Shown piece after piece: positions 1 through 59,678 of a stretch of 64,000 bases of DNA. The stretch is from Octopus vulgaris (taxonomy: Eukaryota). The position numbers and the translations under genes are program-made. The first letter of the stretch is position 1, and each line of letters opens with the position of its first letter. The stretch covers positions 131,998,001 through 132,062,000 of the forward strand of contig OX597817.1 in NCBI GenBank assembly GCA_951406725.2, read 5' to 3'. Below the pieces are notes generated by a model, which was not told the origin of the DNA, did no database searches, and worked only from the letters and a program-made list of their open reading frames with translations.

Positions 1-745
1 AGCTGATTCCGGATCTGGACTCAGAAGTGCTGCAGTACGTCAGGACTTTGAGTTATACTTCAGTTTTCTTTGAGAAACCACTAATGTTAGTCATGCAAAA
101 GTAACAATCAGAGACATGATTGCTTGGCTCATGCCATACTATTGGTACAGCAAAATGCATTCTCTTCCGTTTTCCATTCAGCCGGTGTGTAAATCCTAAG
201 TAACACACTGTGCAGCATATATGACGTGCCCACCTCTTGTCTTGGTCCCCAACCTTACACCCGAAATAATATTTATAGGCAATTTTTAATTTGGTGGCAA
301 TGTTCTTCTGCACAGACATAACAAAAGTTGTCTGGGTGATACACACAGCCTCTCCTATTCATAATCTAACACAATTAAAACAGTAATCACGCAGTGCGAG
401 AGATACACATAGCATACGTGATGGCTAGGCAAACGACACTGACGTATTTGGCACTTGCACACAATACCTCAGCGCCATCTTTTGCTAAACTAAATAATGA
501 ACTTTCTCATCGTTTGTTTTATTGCTATTATTTTTTTTTTATTTTGAATTAAGACCGCTTTTCTTTTAACAAATTTATAATATGGCCTATATCTAACCGA
601 AAATTTAGTTATAATCTTGTGCATCTTTACAACTCAAACTCCTGATGTGCTAGAACAATTCTGAGTGCAGATTCGGAACCAGCAGCCTTGAATTTGTCTC
701 AAACACATGCTTTTACCCCAGTAGCAAAATCTTTGTTGTCCAGTG
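1..745 (-). mobile_element. Chapaev3-type (CMC superfamily) DNA transposon, internally deleted non-autonomous copy; other terminus lies just outside the window
   Basis: Minus-strand terminus CACTGGACAACAAAG at 745, flanked by TAA (TWA-type target). 2-57 is an imperfect inverted copy of ~628-685. Carries a transposase N-terminal fragment. Confidence 0.8.
53..346 (-). pseudogene. Chapaev3-like transposase N-terminal Cys/His-rich fragment
   Basis: Translation has AYKYYFGCKVGDQDKRWARHICCTVC...FAVPIVWHEPSNHVSDCYFC, matching the Chapaev3 N-terminal motif. It runs directly into the inverted repeat; the catalytic domain is absent. Confidence 0.75.
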
Positions 746-17909: not shown

Positions 17910-18232
17910 AAATGATAAACTTCTGGAAATTTTTACAGACTTTTACAGTTCCAGTGATGGAGTGGATTTCTAGTCTTCGAATCAGCTTTCTCCTTTCTGG
18001 TTTTTGAGAAGCCTAATATCACAAGATTTCTATTTAGGCAGAGTGCCACATATCCCAGGGCTGCAATAATTACAGGTATAAACCTGAATAGAGTAACTGC
18101 AGAGAAGGTATTCTCTTTCTCACTGATCTTCAGCTTTAGGTTAACATCCGCTGGGCAGCTAATTTCCACAATTATACACAGTTCCTCTTCTCTATCCCAA
18201 ATCATTATATCAGGCCTGTTATGCCTAACTTT
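17910..18232 (-). pseudogene. C-terminal restriction-like endonuclease fragment of an R4/Dong-type non-LTR element
   Basis: HNRPDIMIWDREEELCIIVEISCPADVN...SEKEN...IPVIIAALG, a PD-(D/E)xK RLE signature. Confidence 0.75.
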
Positions 18233-18707
18233 TACTGAGGTATTCATACGTACGTATGTATGTATGTATGTATGTATGTTTGTACGTACGTACGTACATA
18301 TGTATGTATGCATGTATATATATATGTATGTAGGGTAACTTGTAATCCAGTACAAACTGATGAAAGGACCGACTGTCAGTCAGTAAAACGGGGACTGAAT
18401 ATTTTAGAGTCAACGAATATATTCTGAACATCGAATTTTTAAATATTTTATGATAAAATATTAAAGATAGCCTTCAAATGCAATGACATTTGGTTAAAGT
18501 ATTATATGGAGTTTAATAAAGAAATATTTTGTGACATATTTAGCGTGTTGTATTACGCAACGTCAGAATATTTTGTGAAAATGCCGTCTTTAAATTACAT
18601 ATCAGCAGTTTTAAAACGGAGCTTATCTAAAAAAGATATTCTTTTTTCTTATTTTGTGCTGAAATCACAAAGGCACTTGGTTATTGTCAGCATATTTTCT
18701 TTAAACC

Positions 18708-22029: not shown

Positions 22030-22700
22030 CCATCATATGTGGCATTCTCATCGTGTCCAAGATACTTATAATTGTCACCTGATTGGAGAAATCGTATTGT
22101 CAAGCCGTATTGTCAAGCGGTTCAGATTTTCAGAGTAGGGCACACATTTTCCGCGTTTTATTGTTAAAAATGCACATTTGGACTCACCAATATTCATTCC
22201 CTTGTTCGTAAACAACTGTGTTTTGATATTCAAATGCATTTTTATCTGTATAATGTTTGGCCCATATAGTTTCAGGTCGTCATCAAAGACAATATGGGAG
22301 ATACTTCTGGATCCATTTCTATGGCCACTATGTTTAGTGAGCAGGTATGGTAGCGGATTTAACGATAGGACGAAGAGCAACACAGTTAGGCTATCACTCT
22401 GAAGAATGCATTTTTGGCTGTGAATGCTTGTTATGCAAAGTTTTGGTCAGGCGTTCAATAGCACTCACATGTGGTTGAGGGCTAACTGTGAAGTCTCGAT
22501 AATCCAACCATGTTTTACTCTATCAAAATCTTCTGAAAGTCCAACCACACCGAAGTAAAGATCCTGTGAGATTTTACTGTTTTGTTTTGTTTTTCTGAAA
22601 CATTTTGTTTATAGTAGCTGCTATCGACATCCCACAGCTAGTTCTTCCTTCCCGCTTGCACAAGTGTTATAATGCTGTTGGTGGCATAATGATCCTCTAA
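22030..22700 (-). pseudogene. Degenerate RT of an R4/Dong-type non-LTR retrotransposon
   Basis: VWLDFQK..FDRVKHGWI, then LLFVLSLNPLPYLL...ISHIVFDDDLKLY...GMNIGESKC. Confidence 0.8.
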
Positions 22701-34229: not shown

Positions 34230-34780
34230 TATTCTTTTCAACTCTAGGCACAAGGCTCGAAATTTGGTGGTAGGGAGCCAGTCGGTTAGATCGATCCAAG
34301 TAAGCAACTGGTACTTAATTTATCGATCCCGGAGAAAGGTAAAGTCGACCTCAACGGAATTTGAACTCAGAACTTAGCAACAGGCGAAATACCGCTAAGC
34401 ATTTCGCCGGGTGTGCTAAGGTTTCTTTTCTAATCTAGGCACAATTCCGAAATTTTGAGGTAAGGGACAAGTCGGTTAGATCGACCCCAGTGCGTAACTG
34501 GTACTTATTTAATCGACCCCGAAAGGATGAAAGGCAAAGTGGACCTCGGCGGAATTTGAACTCAGAACGTAGCGGCAGACGAAATACCGCTAAGCATTTC
34601 GTTCGGCGTGGTAACGTTTCTGCCAGCACGCCGACTTAGTATCTGCTTGTTATTATTTTCTACTCTAGGCACAAGGCCGGACATTTTGGAGGGTGGGAGC
34701 CAGTCAATTAAATTGAGTCCAGTGCACACCTGGTACTTAATTTATCGACCCCGAAAGGATGAAATGCAGAGTCGACCTCC
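34230..34780 (-). mobile_element. Three SINE family A copies in tandem
   Basis: Three CTAGGCACAA tail motifs (34243, 34435, 34665), each with a core. Confidence 0.85.
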
Positions 34781-35148: not shown

Positions 35149-35214
<66 letters not shown>

Positions 35215-35215
<1 letters not shown>

Positions 35216-35851
35216 GTAAATATAAGAGAGCCAACTTTGAATATGTTAACTCTAGTGCTAGAAATAGCTCCATCGGTAGTCGCCGGTTTATTGTGCTAGG
35301 TCGCTCGGTGTTAAAATAAGGGTATTATTGAATTAATATCTATAATTTTATTCACCCTCATTATTGAATTTATTAATTTGATACGCTGCAGTAAATATTA
35401 CATGCGGTATTCACTTCCACTTAGCATTTATTTTCGGCGGGGAATTCGTAACTACAACCCTGAATGTAATAGACCAGACCACATGGTTAATCGTCGCCTG
35501 TATGGTCTGATTAATTATATTGACAAATGTTGCTGACGAATCATAGACAATTATGTAAGTATAATCTGCATATTTTGTTAATGAGGAAACAATTGTACAA
35601 CATTAATCCATTATTTAGTTGTATTTCAATTTCATTGCGTTGATTGTAGTGCTATTTCTATGTGGAATTATCGTTGGCGACTACCGGTGGAGCTATTTCT
35701 AGCACTAGAGTTAACATATTCAAAGTTGGCTCTCTTATATTTACGGATAAATATGAATTTGTATCCCCGGTTTATTGTGGTAGGTCGCTCGGTGTTAAAA
35801 TAAGAGTATTATTGAATTAATATCTATAATTTTATTCACCCTCATTATTGA

Positions 35852-35857
<6 letters not shown>
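35215..35857 (+). mobile_element. Penelope pLTR/retrozyme-like element: 484-bp unit, ~91-bp terminal direct repeat, 70-bp inverted 5' segment, inserted in (TA)n
   Basis: 35283-35373 is a direct repeat of 35767-35857; 35215-35284 is the reverse complement of 35676-35745; hammerhead at 35526-35604; no ORF. Confidence 0.8.
35526..35604 (+). ncRNA. Type I hammerhead ribozyme motif
   Basis: AATGTTG-CTGACGA-ATCAT...ATGAG-GAAA-CAATTG-TA-CAACATT. Perfect 7-bp stem I, extended stem II (A.G at the closing position), palindromic stem III ACAATTGT, GUA site ending at 35597. Confidence 0.8.
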
Positions 35858-35916
<59 letters not shown>

Positions 35917-35994
35917 AATATATACATCAGTACATACATAACTCTGTTTGTGTGTATATGTTTTTTTTATTTATGTGTGTGTATACGATGGAAT

Positions 35995-38519: not shown

Positions 38520-39130
38520 CTTTTCTATTCTTCTCTAGGCACAAGGCCCGACATTTTGGGGCAGGGTGGGATAGTCAATTATATCGACTCCAATACACCA
38601 CGGGTACTTAATTTATCGACCCCGAAAGGATGAAAGGCAAAGTCGACCTCGGCGGAATTTGGACTAAGAACGTAACGGACCACGAAAAATACCCATTTCT
38701 TTACTACCCACAAGGGGCTAAACACAGAGGGGACAAAGAAGGGCAGACAAACGGATTAAGTCGATTACATCGAACCCAGTGCGTAACTGGTACTTATTTA
38801 ATAGACCCCGAACGGATGAAAGGCAAAATCGACTTCAGCGGAATTTGAACTCAGAACGTAGCGGCAGACGAAATACCTATTTCTTTACTACCCACAAGGG
38901 GCTAAACACAGAGAGGACAAACAAGGACAGATAAACGGATTAAGTCGAATATATCGATCCCAGTGTGTAACTGGTACTTATTTAATCGACCCCGAAAGGA
39001 TGAAAGGCAAAGTCGACCTCGGCGGAATTTGAACTCAGAATGTAGCGACAGACGAAATACTGCTGAGCATTTCGTCCGGCGTGCTAACGATTCTGCCAGC
39101 TCGCCGCCTTTCTGCCAGCTCGCCGCCTTA
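38520..39130 (-). mobile_element. SINE family A trimer
   Basis: One head (39128) plus two headless ~182-bp units with the same junction. Confidence 0.88.
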
Positions 39131-39363: not shown

Positions 39364-39530
39364 TTCTTCTTCTTCTTCTTCTTCTTCTTCTTCTTCTTCT
39401 TCTTCTTCTTCTTCTTCTTCTTCTTCTTCTTCTTCTTCTTCTTCTTCTTCTTCTTCTTCTTCTTCTTCTTCTTCTTCTTCTTCTTCTTCTCCTCCTCCTT
39501 CTCCTGCTGCTGCTGCTGCTACTACTACTG

Positions 39531-39584
<54 letters not shown>

Positions 39585-39599: not shown

Positions 39600-42170
39600 C
39601 GTCTTCCCATCCAAATACCCATATCAAAATCTTCGCTGTCCCCACTAAAACATCTTTCTCATCATCTTCTACCCTCACGTCGATCCGAATTTCTCCAATA
39701 AATTTTGCAAACCTGGTTGTTATCGCTCCTAATGTTTCTACTTCTGCTCTGATGACAATTACTCTTTTCCTGCAATTTCGTCTATTACTAGCTTCTACTT
39801 CTCAATTTTTTCTACTTCTTTGTCATCCACTCATTTCAAATCTCCAAATATGGCAATGTCTTTCATCTTGGTTTCCTTCATTAATTTATCAACTCCAACA
39901 ATGTCTGGCCTTCCAACATCGATTGGTAACACCTTCTGGTTTACGCTCGTACCATATTAATGTGCTTTTCAGACCCTACTTTTGTTATTGTTGTTGTTTT
40001 TGTTGTTAGCTATTCGTTTTGTCTCAAATTTTGTTGTAACTCCTGGAGTCTTGCACGCGTAGCGGGTTTGCTGCCCGCACCCAACCGTATCATGCCATCT
40101 GTTCTTTTCAGGTATCTAATACTTTCCCGATTAATCTGGCCGCGTCGAAGAGGAAAACCTTTCGTAACACCGAAACTCTATTCCGATTTCCTTGATATTC
40201 CTCTTGATGCCTTTTGATATTGTACCAAAGCATCTTACAATAATTGGCACTGTCTTAACCTTCGCTTTCCATAGACGGGTTATTTCGTACCAAATAGAAT
40301 TGTGCATTTCTTTTTGTGTGTGTGTGTGTGTGTGTTTTTTTTGCCTTCCTTCTATTCTCTCAAGGCCCCGCTTTTCGAACTTTCAAAAGTACCCTTTCGC
40401 TACCTGATCATGTCACCACAACTTGTAGTGGTTTTAAACAAGTCTAGGGCATTCGTTCGTGACACAGACAATGGTTTCATCCACACTATTGCAAATTAGC
40501 GGAGACTAAGGTTGACTCTTCAATTCGTAGCCAAATCTTTTTTTGAGCTTAGAGCTCTAGGTCTCTTTTTTTAGTGTTCCCTTCATCAGCCAATCCCACC
40601 TATTTTCCCCGGCAACTTCCGCTCTGGCTAATTGGCTGATTGTGAAGTCCCTTGTCGCGTAGTTCTTCTTTATGTCCTTTTTGCACCCCTTCCTTTGCTT
40701 TCCCTTTTTTTCTCTGCTCTCAATACACTCTCGTTCCTATCTGTCACAAGCAATGTGCCTCAAGTATTCCCAGGTATATATGGCTGGATTGAAATTGAAT
40801 TGCCATCATCATTTCACCATTTGGCAACCATATGCATTCTGTCCTGGCAAGCTTTCTTTGTCTCATCACTATCGTAGCACATTTTGAGAGTCCAATCTCC
40901 ATCTTAATAGCATTGAAGAAAACCTGCATTGACAGAACTAGGCTGTCCAGTTCTGCCTCAGTTTTTGTGAATAGCTTCAGGTCGTCCATGGATAGCAAGT
41001 GGTTCAGTTTTCCCTTACCTCTTCCCAGATCATACCCCAACTTTGTTTTCTGTAGTATTTCACTAAAAGAATATTATTATTCCTTGGTAACGCAGTGTAG
41101 GTAAATATGCACCGGAGTCATTAGTCATCAGACAAACCACAAGGACCTCAGACAGATAATAGTTTACTTAACATATGCGCTTCGCCCAATAAAGCTGCTT
41201 TTTGAAAAACATCAATCTTGCATGGGATTTCCAGTTGCCTTAAGAAGTCTTGAAGTTTCAATGGGATTGAGCCCAACGCTCCGATCACCACTGGTATCAC
41301 TTTAACCCTCATGCATTCCATACAGTCTTGTCATCTCCAATTTCAGTTCGGAGAACTTGGTGATTTTTTCAACCCCTTTACTCACAATATTCATGTCATT
41401 TGGTATGGCTACATCAATGATCTGACAGTATTTGTTTTTTCACTTAATCAATATGGCCGACGGTGTTCGATTACACGATCCGTCTGAAAATCATAGTCCC
41501 AGAGTATCGTTATTTTCCCATCTTCCTGCATAACTTTACTTGCTACATTCTCATACCAGTTCTCTGTTACTTCATATTAGTATTTACAACAAAAGAACCA
41601 ATAAAGAGACACACACACTTTATCGTGGCGGCGCTTGTATTCTTTTTTTGCAAGACTCTCATATCCACTTACCAAGTGGGTCACATCTTCCACGCTCTTT
41701 CCACAGAGTCTGCATTTCTGGGTGTCAGAAGTTATATAGATGTTATACTTTATCATTATTATTATTGTCGTTGTTGTTGCTGTTGTTGTTCTTCTTCTTA
41801 TTATTATTATTTCTTTTTATCACAGTCTTTTTGGAACTCCTGAAGTCTTGTGTGTGGAGCGGGTTTACTACCCGCAGTCTACAGTACCATGCTACCCGTT
41901 CTTTTCAGCTATCTAATACTTTCTTTATTCTAACTGTGCCAAGGAGGCAAACCTTTTGTAACAGTTCTACTGGACACTCTATTCGCTTCTGAACTAACAT
42001 TCAATAACCGTTTAGTTTGCCTACTTATCTCACCTTCTTCTCTGCCCCTGGCTTTGGGTATATGAAGTATCAGAATGACGACCAGTCCTGCACTGCTCAA
42101 CCACAGGCCACCTGCCGGGCGAAAGGCTTTCACCCTTGGTTCCAACTTCCTTAACACCATTATTCGATAC
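39600..42170 (-). pseudogene. Stack of degenerate R4/Dong-type LINE fragments (several RLE 3' ends and one RT piece)
   Basis: RPDIV..DK...DIAI.GD...KEVEKIEK (~39800-39925); LGTISK (~40220); NHLLSMDDLKLF...MEIGLSKC...YLGILE (40744-41040); further RLE ends at ~41200-41720 and QKVCLLGTVRIKKVL (~41915-41960). Confidence 0.75.
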
Positions 42171-42908: not shown

Positions 42909-43803
42909 GTTTTTTCTTCAAATGTTCCTCCGTTTCTCGCCGAGTGTTTTCCATACACCTAGGGCAGAGAAGGGCATTGTATGCATTCCCAGATTACAGG
43001 CGCAAATTCACAGATAAAATATGTTTAAAAATTAATAAATAAATAAATTCATCGATGGATGTTATTTTCACAGCGATAGTGCTCTTCTCAGTACATGAGC
43101 CGTTCCAGTTAATACTATTTTTTGCACTTCCTGTAGGGATGGTAAGCCTGGAATCATTTTCAAATAGGTTTCAGTACCTTTTTTTATCATTCCTAGAGAT
43201 GCTACAATCACTGGTACTGTAGTCGCTTTGAGATGCCACATTTTTTCAATTTCTATTAGCAGGTCTTTATATTTACTAATCTTGTCAAATTCTTTCGCCG
43301 CTATATTGTGATCACAGGGAATACTCATGTCGATTAATAAACACATCCTTTTTGTCTGATCCTTTATAATGATATCCGGTTTATTAGCTTTTATAGTCCT
43401 GTCGGTCTGCACGAGGAAGTCCCATAGAATCGACACATTTTCTCCCTCAGTCACAGCTTCAGGATTATGTTTATACCATTTGTCAGCAGTTTTGATTTTA
43501 TAATGCCGACGTATTGTCCAATGTAAATACTGGCCGACTCTGTCATGTCTTGCTTTATATTCTGCAGGTGCTAAGACTCTACACCCTGAGATTAGGTGGT
43601 CTATTGTTTCAATCTCATCGTTACAGAATCGGCATTTTGGGCCAGCTCCATTTTTCATCACATTGGCTTGGTAGTTCCGAGTTAATAAGCTTTGGTCTTG
43701 AGCAGCTAATATGAAACCTTCACTCTCTGCTTTTAGCCATGAGTTTCGTAACCATTGGTGCGTGTGTTTCTGGTCGACATCAGCTTGTTTGCTATGGACC
43801 ACA
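42909..43803 (-). mobile_element. 5'-truncated R4/Dong-clade non-LTR retrotransposon inserted in (TAA)n
   Basis: ORF end plus ~160-bp 3' UTR; (TAA)n arrays at 42844-42908 and 43805-43918 on the element strand. Confidence 0.9.
43068..43802 (-). CDS. R4/Dong ORF C-terminus: CCHC zinc knuckle plus PD-(D/E)xK restriction-like endonuclease (partial, uninterrupted 244 aa)
   Basis: AAQDQ, CRFC...ETIDHLISGC, RHD, LWDF..TDR..ANKPDII...LLID.SIP.D...KE.DK..KY.DL, PVIV..LG motifs. Confidence 0.9.
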   Translation of the reverse strand: MVHSKQADVDQKHTHQWLRNSWLKAESEGFILAAQDQSLLTRNYQANVMKNGAGPKCRFCNDEIETIDHLISGCRVLAPAEYKARHDRVGQYLHWTIRRHYKIKTADKWYKHNPEAVTEGENVSILWDFLVQTDRTIKANKPDIIIKDQTKRMCLLIDMSIPCDHNIAAKEFDKISKYKDLLIEIEKMWHLKATTVPVIVASLGMIKKGTETYLKMIPGLPSLQEVQKIVLTGTAHVLRRALSL

Positions 43804-43808
43804 TATTA

Positions 43809-56725: not shown

Positions 56726-59678
56726 GTGTGTGTGTGTGTGTGTGTAGGGGTCAATAGATTTTAATGATTCACAACAAACGGCCGTCTGTTTCAGTCTACT
56801 GATCCCATTGATCGGTGAAATGAAGAGATAGAGACATGCTTCTCTTTGATACAAATCATTAAAATTGATAAACATGTATTTACTTATTTTTGGCATACTT
56901 ACGCTTTAAATCTTTTATTTCGTTGTGGTCACGTGAAATATTACTATCCCCTTGAATGTGTGTGTGTGTGTGTGTGTGCATACATACATATATATATACA
57001 TATATAAGTGACTTTTCTATCAATATTCTGATATCGGTGCTTGAGATGTTCTCTCAACACAGTTATCTACTCGTTGATTTATAATGATAGTGGGCTACGA
57101 TTTCGCACGTACATGATTCATGCTTCACGTAGCCTGCAAATAAAAGCAGTGAAAGTCAGAAGACATCCGTGTCACAGTTTCGAACCTCTGCCTCCTAAAC
57201 TCTTTCTCGTACCCTCTTTTTCTCATGTCGCTCGAGTATGATAAAATACATTTAAAAGATGTCTTCTATTGAGATGAAGACCTTGCTGTACTCATTATAA
57301 GGTAAACGTTCTGGTTATTCTGACGCACTAATACAGATGCGCATATACACAAACATGCTTACAGACACATGCGTATACATACATACATATATATATGCAA
57401 ATAGATAGATAAATATAGTTACATATAAACAGATATACATACGCACACACACAAACACACACACATATATATATATATGAGGAGAGTGTGTGTGTGTGTG
57501 TGAGAGAGAGAGATAGAGAGAGAGAGAAGTAATAGAGATGACACTGGCAAAAACAAAGCCTATGTAATCAACTTCGTTAGCTCACAGCAATAAGATGCGG
57601 CGCACTCTGAGTTGATTACATGGATAGCATCCTATAGCTTCGTCGGAACTCCTAAGGCAATGTGCACCTTATTTGGGAAAATTACATTTTCGAAACATAC
57701 AGGCGTTATGAGTGAGTAAATCTACGTTGTTGCTTATTGAAAATTCTGTCCAAAAGAAGATAAAAATATGCAAATATACGCAGACATATAATCACCTAGA
57801 GAGAGCAGAGATAGACGGATACATGCGCACACGCGCACACACACACATATATATGGGCCCGTACAAAACACACATCTGATGTTGTGTTCTGAAGCATACA
57901 CATTTTGAGTTCAGCACCAGATTATTTGTCTCGCTTTGCCAAAGCTAAATGTTTACGCTTTCAAACTTCTCATATGTGATTTGGGTCTGGTTACTCTGAA
58001 GAAATTCCTCCCCAAAATATTTCCATAATATGAGCTTTTATAAATTTGATGTTGGTTTGGGGGTTTGAATCGAAACAATTGTAGGGATTATATTTTTATA
58101 TTATTCTTATAATAATATAAAATTATGCCAATAAGTTAACATATATATATAGAGAGGTGGAGTATGTGTACATGTGTGTATGTGTATTGTGCCGTTGGTT
58201 TTATAGCCGATCGCACTGAATAGTGGGTTCAATGGTGCGCAAAACAAAGTCACGCACTGTATCATCGTAAATTTTGCACGGATTTACTAAGTTTAGGAAG
58301 TGGTTTTACACGGCCACAAGCCGAGTTCCGCTATACATTCATCCATTCATCCATACATACATACATACATATACACACACAAACTCACTCACACACATAT
58401 GTAATTATGCTTAAAACAATAATATCTTTACTAGTGACTTAAAGAAGAATGTTATTAACAGTAACTGCGAAGTTTCGACCAGTGCAGCCATTATCGACTG
58501 AAACTTCAGAGTCGCTGTCAATAATATTCTTGTCTAATAATAATGATAACAAATTTGTAATCTACAAAAGAACTGAGTAGTCCATCAGATTAATGTAAAA
58601 TATTGTTTTTATTATAACCGAAATAACACGCGCACACATACACACATGTATATACATATCCTGCAATCATGTGACCGACCCGATTATCAGATGTTGTTAC
58701 ACATCGCTGGTACCAATGCGTTTTGCATTGATTCAACCAAGAAATGATACCACTCCGATGGCTCAGCGAGCAGACCAACATTCTCCCTTGATCGAAAGGG
58801 AACTGGTGCAACGTGAAATGAAGTTTTTTTGTCGAAGAACACAATGCGCCGCGCACTCTGGGAATCGAACCCAAAAACTAGCGATCGTGCGTGCAATAGC
58901 CTAACCACTAGGCCACGCACCTTCATACACACACATACACACACACACACACACATATACATATACATTTATGTACGTGCATACATATATACACATGTAT
59001 ACATGTACATAAGTATGTGTGTGTGCTCTGTTATATTTTTAGATCGTCGATAACGATAGAACTCTCCACTTTAATTGATTAATGACACGTGCACACATTT
59101 GCATTTCTAAGCACTTCTGCTGTCATTTTCAATTCTTTCTCATGCTAAAAACGTGTCTATCGATTAATAATACAACGTGCAATACAAGAGCATGTGTACT
59201 TTCAGCGTTCAATTATTGAATAGTGACAGAGAGAAAGAGACAACATCTCAGAATGCATTATTAATTATAGCTTGTTCTGTCGCCTGATTTTTACCCAGCC
59301 AAGTAAATCAAAACAACTCCCACTTTATTTGTGTAATGAAATCCCACAATTAACTGCCTGATATAGCAAAGCATCGGCCTAAATGCTTTACACTGTTTAG
59401 AATCCTTCGATTAATTATAATTTCTTACGCGAATCCTAGTAAAATAAGTGCTGGTAATTTACTAATATCAATTTACTGCGTGTAAGTATTTCTTAACAAG
59501 TAAGCTTAAGCGTGGCTGTGTGGTAAAACATTTGCTTCAGAGTTCAATCCCAACGCCTGGCACGCTGGAGAAGTATTTTCTACTATAGCTATGAGCTGAC
59601 CAAAGCCTTGTGAACGAATTTGGGAGACGGAATCTAAAAAAAGCACGTCGTATACATACATACATACATGCATATATG

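Follow-up and report, generated by a model that had tools for sequence, protein, structure and literature searches.

Non-LTR retrozymes of animals are described as non-coding repeats of low G+C content that are organized head-to-tail in multiple copies, carry one type I hammerhead ribozyme per unit, have a self-paired predicted fold and co-occur with Penelope-like elements (PLEs) (PMC7229834; 10.64898/2026.07.22.740005). In molluscs such a retrozyme is known from Mytilus, with units of 350–390 nt (PMC7229834; 10.64898/2026.07.22.740005), and a retrozyme target-site duplication, when present, is longer than 4 bp in the animal retrozyme literature. How are these non-coding units able to spread? 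Mobilization by PLEs was proposed (PMC7229834), and the link was later supported by co-occurrence and by pLTR phylogeny in a study whose authors call the mechanism open and in which invertebrates are hardly sampled, the species table holding only four of them according to the text (10.64898/2026.07.22.740005). PLE insertions for their part are recognized by a partial tandem, an inverted 5'-truncated copy, a tail of 30–40 bp at one end and a preference for (TA)n (PMC8557442; PMC3846280). The purified PLE protein of the anole, the sole PLE protein tested in vitro, makes nicks in both strands and extends them, begins synthesis at two internal positions whose distance corresponds to the tail, and acts mainly on uncleaved RNA (PMC11167929). 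Octopus has (TA)n-targeting PLEs of the Hydra and Naiad groups (PMC8557442), and 31 recently active PLE families are reported for O. vulgaris (PMC13282606).

The locus considered here lies in a 64-kb stretch of Octopus vulgaris DNA, all of which was analyzed and which is called the window in the following. Self-comparison of the window revealed an element of 643 bases (Table 1), in which a direct repeat with a period of 484 nt is preceded by an inverted piece that matches its internal counterpart at 69 of 70 positions. The inverted piece and the direct part overlap by 2 nt (35283–35284), and the 70-bp arms of the inverted piece enclose a spacer of 391 bp. The direct part comprises 575 nt or 1.19 units, crosses the hammerhead cut site unbroken and contains one motif. 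The unit itself is devoid of an open reading frame, its longest stop-free stretch being 73 codons (47 when counted from a methionine) with no remnant ORF, and an ORF and domain check of the window found neither a reverse transcriptase nor a GIY-YIG ORF in the element. Its G+C content is 33% and thus below 50%. The predicted fold of the linear unit has a z score of −2.65, with 2 of 100 shuffles as stable, and that of the circular unit a z score of −2.9, with none of 60 shuffles as stable. As both flanks of the insertion are (TA)n, any target-site duplication is unreadable inside the arrays. By BLASTN the element has no further copy within the 64 kb of the window. The first-pass annotation had been made from the letters of this DNA; its 484-nt period, its 70-bp inverted copy, its (TA)n on both sides and its lack of an ORF, together with their coordinates, were all recovered by repeat, array and ORF analysis. 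The coordinates of the G+C-rich hairpin in Table 1 come from a bacterial promoter scan, the promoter calls of which are irrelevant to animal DNA. Since the duplicated pieces of the window copy differ at 3 of 161 positions, its age would be roughly 2.6 (0.5–7.4) million years if the pieces were identical at insertion and the calibration reported in PMC13282606 applies.

Table 1. Features of the element and of the flanking host gene; positions are those of the window.
Feature	Position	Strand	Basis or remark
Upstream exon of adhesion GPCR, hormone-receptor domain, residues 307–346 of P0002	33750–33869	+	100% identity
Left (AT)n target array	35152–35214	.	31.5 copies, 100%
Inverted, truncated copy of 35676–35745; outer end abuts (TA)n	35215–35284	-	self-comparison
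pLTR-like partial tandem of 91 bp: 3' end of a first unit copy, truncated at its 5' side	35283–35373	+	89/91 identical to 35767–35857
Full 484-nt non-coding unit, ends at the family's fixed 3' end	35374–35857	+	
Type I hammerhead motif	35526–35604	+	descriptor, Rfam alignment, folding
Long stem II arm, 46 nt, basal A35540·G35585 mismatch	35540–35585	+	pairing probability 0.7–0.96 in 12/12 contexts
Putative masking segment, pairs with 35596–35601 (cut site and 3' arm of stem I) in full unit	35618–35623	+	fold prediction
G+C-rich hairpin; contains inner ends of three inverted pieces (35676, 35682, 35689)	35671–35690	+	
Tail, in direct end and absent from inverted end; between the (TA)n junction sites 35745–35754 and 35857	35746–35857	+	
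Right (TA)n target array	35855–35924	.	35 copies, 94%
Downstream exon of adhesion GPCR, residues 346–383 of P0002	48309–48422	+	tblastn range

Words of the unit were found in 20 sequencing runs from 10 studies with four organism labels, the best share of sampled words being 0.40. Contigs of four of the 20 runs (X4, X13, X6 and X9, from three organisms) were aligned to 35283–35766 at 82% likeness, and seven runs with a share below 0.2 were left out of the family analysis. These data are assembled contigs, from which RNA ends, strand or level are not readable; X13 is only guessed to be RNA and none of the 20 runs is labelled as such, and neither circumstance bears on expression or circularity. 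Contigs matching the unit number 60 in X4, 16 in X13, 90 in X6 and 104 in X9 and are spread over all identity bands from 99 and above to under 90, demonstrating a multi-copy family with subfamilies, of which the diverged ones cover the same 484 nt. The unit is covered in 29 of 29 bins in three of the runs, X13 being without cover at 35385–35418 (2 of the 29 bins). One contig (record 10 of X4) bridges 35373|35374 with 34 and 37 letters and 3 differences from the window and reveals the head-to-tail junction in another copy. The summed depth of contigs does not measure copy number and is too high in variant-rich stretches; it is about equal across this junction in X4 (233 to 412), X6 (1133 to 1291) and X9 (543 to 353) and varies approximately 7- to 24-fold along the unit in the same runs. 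Just 3–13% of the aligned material runs on in a manner unlike the unit. For 22 of the 47 loose ends the sequence is listed, the long ones (53 and 99 nt) read for 30 letters: three are (TA)n and 19 are by eye variants of the unit (three of them only 8–10 letters), and among these 22 neither foreign sequence nor a reverse transcriptase or GIY-YIG sequence stands behind the unit. The junction bridge, the depth and the lack of foreign sequence behind these 22 loose ends together make a closed unit of 484 nt more likely than the terminus of a long coding element. A joint of 35766 to 35283 is present in all four runs; it was discounted as proof of a tandem, as it reflects where the reference was cut. 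Arrays with two complete hammerheads are absent among the contigs listed, the longest of which has 243 nt, none spanning the unit. That a cephalopod carries a multi-copy hammerhead unit without ORF in head-to-tail order, as proposed from the window sequence, is thus borne out by the copies in all four runs and by the bridged junction in X4, and single-copy status, which had been named as an argument against it, does not apply, given 16–104 contigs per run.

Is the hammerhead genuine, and could it cut? A strict hammerhead descriptor has one match in the window and none in 5000 dinucleotide shuffles of the element or in 40 shuffles of the window. Stem I (35526–35532/35598–35604) consists of 7 Watson–Crick pairs and closes a core of CUGACGA (35533–35539) and GAAA (35586–35589), which conforms to the CUGANGA, GAAA and NUH arrangement of type I; stem III is the 8-nt palindrome ACAAUUGU (35589–35596), and the cleavage site is GUA, with the cut predicted after 35597. 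The first-pass annotation had pointed to this perfect stem I, core, palindromic stem III and GUA site, and the shuffles agree with it; the 46-nt stem II with its basal A·G mismatch was not mentioned there. A run of hammerhead models had also been proposed and gave a divided outcome. There was no hammerhead match in the window at the gathering level of Rfam, and none at E ≤ 10 in a scan of 901 nt, but in a 151-nt stretch Hammerhead_1 aligned from end to end (model positions 1–45) with 19.2 bits and an E value of 0.021, below the gathering score of 34, and with 46 nt standing where the model has stem II.

Stem II lacks the basal pair G10.1–C11.1, which is described as strongly conserved among PLE hammerheads (PMC4209133); in its place the window copy has A·G and the family A·A or U-A. 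Throughout the depth of X4, X13 and X9, and for 939 of 1300 in X6, the base at 35585 is A; one subfamily has U at 35540, creating a U-A pair at the base of stem II. Because natural exceptions exist, namely U·U in HHR_Amex2 of the axolotl (PMC7229834) and U·U in many motifs of the Hydra clade (PMC8557442 File S2), the missing pair is compatible with the hammerhead class, and by analogy it would lower the expected rate of cleavage without excluding this class. Folding assigns stem III of the monomer a pairing probability of at most 0.06, and the free energy of the palindrome is −6.4 kcal/mol as 8-bp duplex as compared to +2.4 as monomer hairpin, which makes it a short stem III that permits dimers; any cleavage would therefore need a dimer, joined through ACAAUUGU. 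Stem I forms with a probability of 0.90 in the isolated motif and of at most 0.01 in the full unit. In five of the six contexts that include the putative masking segment, its predicted pairing over the cut site and the 3' stem I arm has a probability of 0.73–0.94, and in the sixth one of 0.13. Given the basal mismatch in stem II, the weak stem III of the monomer and the predicted blockade of stem I, self-cleavage by the window copy appears doubtful and would probably be poor and confined to the dimer. In the 40 of 81 variant rows with the best support, stem I, core and stem III (33 nt together) hold a single variant, at the free position N7 (35537), where a rough hand count would expect about 4; this is no more than suggestive of conservation of these parts among the variants listed.

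Several other candidates for a hammerhead or its action were rejected. A second GAAACAATTGTA at 58072 is a chance occurrence, without core or stem I upstream. Pattern scans yielded no match in metagenome contigs and, with the strict pattern, none in viral contigs, and four viral loci found with a looser pattern were attributed to chance, three of them having the same matched stretch and none having stem I or wider likeness to the unit. Many contigs start at 35590–35594; they do not signal cleavage, as a variant at 35624 explains the break in the assembly graph.

The ends of the copies follow a clear rule. In X13 and X6 (TA)n follows directly after 35373, and since the window copy shares this end, the 3' end of the family is fixed at 35373/35857. 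In X9 (TA)n follows after 35754, at most 9 nt from the point (35745) where the window copy's inverted piece ends on its outer side, and as the nine letters between them resemble (TA)n, both positions are likely one site. The X9 contig at 35754 may represent the window's own locus in a related animal, record 27 of X9 being close to the window copy. The likeness of this second site to (TA)n is 7 of 10, a value reached or beaten by 29 of the 484 positions. Inversions recur as well: joints were found at 35420/35689 in X13 and at 35504/35682 in X6, both without microhomology, in addition to the joint 35283/35676 of the window copy, where 2 nt are shared. All three inverted pieces terminate on their inner side within the same 14 nt (35676–35689), and the direct parts start at three different places. 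A depth peak at 35691–35741, just upstream of the second site, is present in all four runs and would weakly fit a segment copied from both sites. Provided that the direct parts in X13 and X6 reach the usual 3' end, they contain the sequence of the inverted pieces as well. Such redundancy is at odds with L1-type twin priming on one linear monomer. Fold-back self-priming as source of the inversions is less favored, the junction being non-palindromic and two of the three joints lacking microhomology (cf. PMC3846280). The partial tandem that forms a pLTR and the adjacent inverted 5'-truncated copy correspond to the layout of a PLE insertion, with a one-sided extension of 103–112 nt in place of the described tail of 30–40 nt. 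Of the reading offered by the first-pass annotation, the multi-copy hammerhead unit and the Penelope-type insertion pattern with an inverted 5' piece hold, given the fixed 3' end, the variable 5' ends and the three inversion joints, but its freely permuted copies are contradicted by the end common to the window, X13 and X6, only the 5' ends varying.

How could an ORF-less unit be inserted in this manner? We consider it quite probable that the element belongs to a multi-copy ORF-less 484-nt octopus repeat that is mobilized in trans by a (TA)n-targeting PLE, and hence to a non-autonomous family of the non-LTR retrozyme type. The PLE endonuclease would nick both strands of a (TA)n array, and the first nick would prime reverse transcription at the 3' end of the unit (35857), whereupon 575 nt would be copied, through the hammerhead cut site. 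The second nick would prime 103–112 nt further upstream (35745–35754), where synthesis would halt after 55–70 nt in the G+C-rich hairpin, which is likely to act as stop for the reverse transcriptase. End-joining of the two cDNAs would then create the head-to-head inversion with the tail at one end only. By analogy this layout may be mapped one to one onto the scheme of the anole PLE protein, but the unit is non-coding and 484 nt long, and the tail measures 103–112 nt. Strong hairpins at 35707–35733 and 35307–35356 (both +, pair probability >0.8) lie around the second priming site and ahead of the 3' end and are candidates for signals recognized by the partner protein.

What was the template? 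Since 1.19 units run unbroken over the cut site, it was not a linear self-cleaved monomer and must have exceeded one unit in length and retained an intact cut site. For an uncleaved tandem transcript we see roughly an even chance; a religated 484-nt circle copied with strand displacement is a plausible candidate of lower probability, and a template jump is improbable. A circular template is possible and not required, as the run-through fits a circle or an uncleaved multimer equally. A far-reaching version, which we regard as speculative and rather unlikely, would be a mobile circular-RNA parasite of cephalopods: a 484-nt circle, cut as a dimer with an unusual 46-nt stem II and masking its own cut site when complete. 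A dimer of the PLE reverse transcriptase-endonuclease would copy it on both nicked (TA)n strands, starting at two fixed sites with a spacing of about 105 nt. If this were true, the insertions would be a direct structural record of animal retrozyme circles as PLE substrates, a link between circles and PLEs that has so far been argued just from co-occurrence and phylogeny.

The structural hallmarks of the element are all those of ordinary PLE insertions, and the pieces could be termini of an autonomous PLE or a by-product of one that arises rarely by internal deletion, in which case the 484-nt form would not propagate as a family of its own. PLEs of the Hydra clade with a hammerhead near the 3' end, mismatches at the foot of stem II, GUA or GUU sites and (TA)n targets would be suitable sources (PMC8557442), genomic PLE hammerheads are mostly solitary truncated copies (PMC4209133), and both the uneven depth along the unit in X4, X6 and X9 and the coverage of only 22 of the 47 loose ends leave room for such an origin. 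We nevertheless hold it to be unlikely, because none of the joints listed and none of the 22 loose ends leaves the unit for foreign sequence, the depth behind the 3' end is approximately that before it in three of the four runs, the subfamilies cover the 484 nt and there is no remnant ORF.

Spread as DNA would fit the 70-bp arms around a spacer: the repeat would then be a dispersed satellite or fold-back element, propagated by slippage and repair in (TA)n or as rolling-circle DNA, with the hammerhead as a relic. Local tandem amplification of PLE ends to minisatellites was proposed as such a route, and eight of nine predicted retrozyme dimers were uncleaved in vitro (10.64898/2026.07.22.740005). 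The constant 3' end, the varying 5' ends and inversions rebuilt with other junctions from copy to copy fit target-primed reverse transcription instead, and with two of three inversion joints free of microhomology and with core and stem I apparently conserved among the listed variants, propagation as DNA is in our judgment very improbable. Hardly credible is a chance match or an assembly artefact beside microsatellites as source of the repeat pattern or the hammerhead. The Rfam score is under the gathering threshold, the best run has just 40% of the sampled words and the joint 35283/35676 of the window is not among the joints listed, but the descriptor found nothing in the shuffled elements, analogous joints exist in two other runs, and the 3 differences in 161 positions between the duplicated pieces are unlike a collapsed or duplicated assembly. 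Against the reading as a PLE-mobilized retrozyme count a tail about three times the described 30–40 nt, a unit of 484 nt where 150–450 nt are given for invertebrate repeats (PMC7229834), the missing G10.1–C11.1 pair, the absence of two-hammerhead arrays among the contigs listed and the lack of a match to the PLE sequences compared.

Exons on both sides of the element lie on the same strand, which places it in an intron of approximately 14.4 kb and in sense orientation, as the first-pass annotation had said of a GPCR intron. The protein used for their detection, P0002, is an adhesion GPCR of Octopus bimaculoides with 1055 residues, named CELSR1-like receptor in its source; Pfam finds 7tm_2 and a pentraxin/laminin G-like domain and, despite this name, no cadherin domain. 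Just two P0002 exons are located within the 64 kb, indicating very long introns. Located in sense within an intron, a hammerhead might in principle sever the pre-mRNA of the GPCR, but given the weak activity predicted for the window copy, the host gene is unlikely to be affected. The unit's only GTRAG donor-like site, GTAAGT at 35555–35560 (+), lies inside stem II of the hammerhead, and a family variant at 35557 converts it to GTGAGT, still donor-like. A role as splice donor was set aside, as GTRAGT occurs in 1303 of 5000 shuffles (26%) and no such joint is listed.

The remainder of the window is rich in other repeats. ORF fragments of non-LTR retrotransposons with weak zf-RVT and RVT_1 matches are found at 43068–43805, 40744–41073, 22075–22446 and 17933–18379 (all on the minus strand), and their C-terminal part resembles that of a clade with a restriction-like endonuclease. 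A SINE-like repeat of 184–195 bp stands in tandem at 34232–34601 and 38603–39060 (1.9 and 2.5 copies), and dispersed relatives of it are common in the window. The Cys/His-rich open frame 53–358 (-) has no Pfam match and seems to resemble a widespread protein derived from DNA transposons. Adjoining (TTC)46 and (CTG/CTA)n arrays at 39364–39583 give rise to long spurious open frames.

Which PLE could be the partner? None of six 12- to 13-mers of the unit occurs in the Naiad/Chlamys/Hydra supplement of PMC8557442, in which FASTA line breaks can hide matches, and by eye there is no match to the four octopus consensus 3' ends (Naiad and Hydra) given there. Identity with Naiad_Ovul, Naiad_Obim, Naiad_Omin or Hydra-1_Obim was rejected on these grounds. 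The hammerhead layout is closest to that of the Hydra clade, and the spacing of 46 nt in the core recalls the half core of Naiad. Hydra-clade PLEs, including Hydra-1_Obim of Octopus bimaculoides, share with the octopus unit the preference for (TA)n and a hammerhead near the 3' end (PMC8557442 Files S1, S2, S7); in many members stem II likewise begins with additional or mismatched bases, and Penelope-2_NV has the GUA site and an ACAA/UUGU stem III as well. In contrast, the hammerhead and 3' end of Hydra-1_Obim are unlike those of the unit by eye, stems II of the clade are short, and the hammerhead starts 331 nt from the 3' end in the octopus unit as compared to approximately 100–210 nt in the Hydra families compared. 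The cephalopod Naiad PLEs designated HHR_half_core (Naiad_Ovul, Naiad_Esco; PMC8557442) also prefer (TA)n and have core halves 35–50 nt apart, but the 3' ends of Naiad_Obim, Naiad_Ovul and Naiad_Omin are without visible match to the unit, and by eye Naiad_Ovul has no GAAA after its CUGAUGA box in the order found in the unit. Non-autonomous Chlamys PLEs such as MRC1 of Chlamydomonas (PMC8557442) are ORF-less with pLTRs and head-to-tail insertions like the octopus element; they differ in their occurrence in green algae, in mostly lacking a canonical hammerhead and in the 3' similarity to a known autonomous family.

The complex insertions of endonuclease-containing (EN+) PLEs (PMC8557442 Fig. 2; PMC3846280; PMC11167929) have the same three-part layout as the octopus element, the 3' end being constant and the 5' ends variable, with two apparent sites of initiation and an AT-rich target, whereas the octopus element has no ORF, a unit of 484 nt versus 2–4 kb and the longer tail. 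With animal retrozymes it has in common the non-coding unit of less than 50% G+C with a type I hammerhead, the self-paired predicted fold, the multi-copy head-to-tail organization and the co-occurrence with PLEs. Its 484 nt lie outside the range of 150–450 nt (PMC7229834) and inside that of 51–972 nt (10.64898/2026.07.22.740005), and the window copy with its single motif falls into the monomer class, the active class of Li et al. being defined by at least two consecutive complete hammerheads (10.64898/2026.07.22.740005). It differs from the described animal retrozymes in the dispersed insertions of 1–1.2 units in (TA)n with inverted piece and tail, in the 46-nt stem II and the missing G10.1–C11.1, and in the lack of arrays with two hammerheads among the contigs listed. 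The literature searched, which covered few subscription journals, contains no description of a cephalopod retrozyme, although the supplement of PMC4209133 may list mollusc motifs; the words hammerhead, ribozyme and retrozyme are absent from the O. vulgaris repeat paper in its text and supplement (PMC13282606), the library of which may list the family under another label. The octopus family thus adds a member to a class that is already known and extends this class to cephalopods. As it combines the insertion pattern of PLE enzymes with an ORF-less unit, it offers countable tests within one genome, in which the starts and stops of copies can be compared with the cut site and the unit junction, and a circle distinguished from an uncleaved multimer as template.
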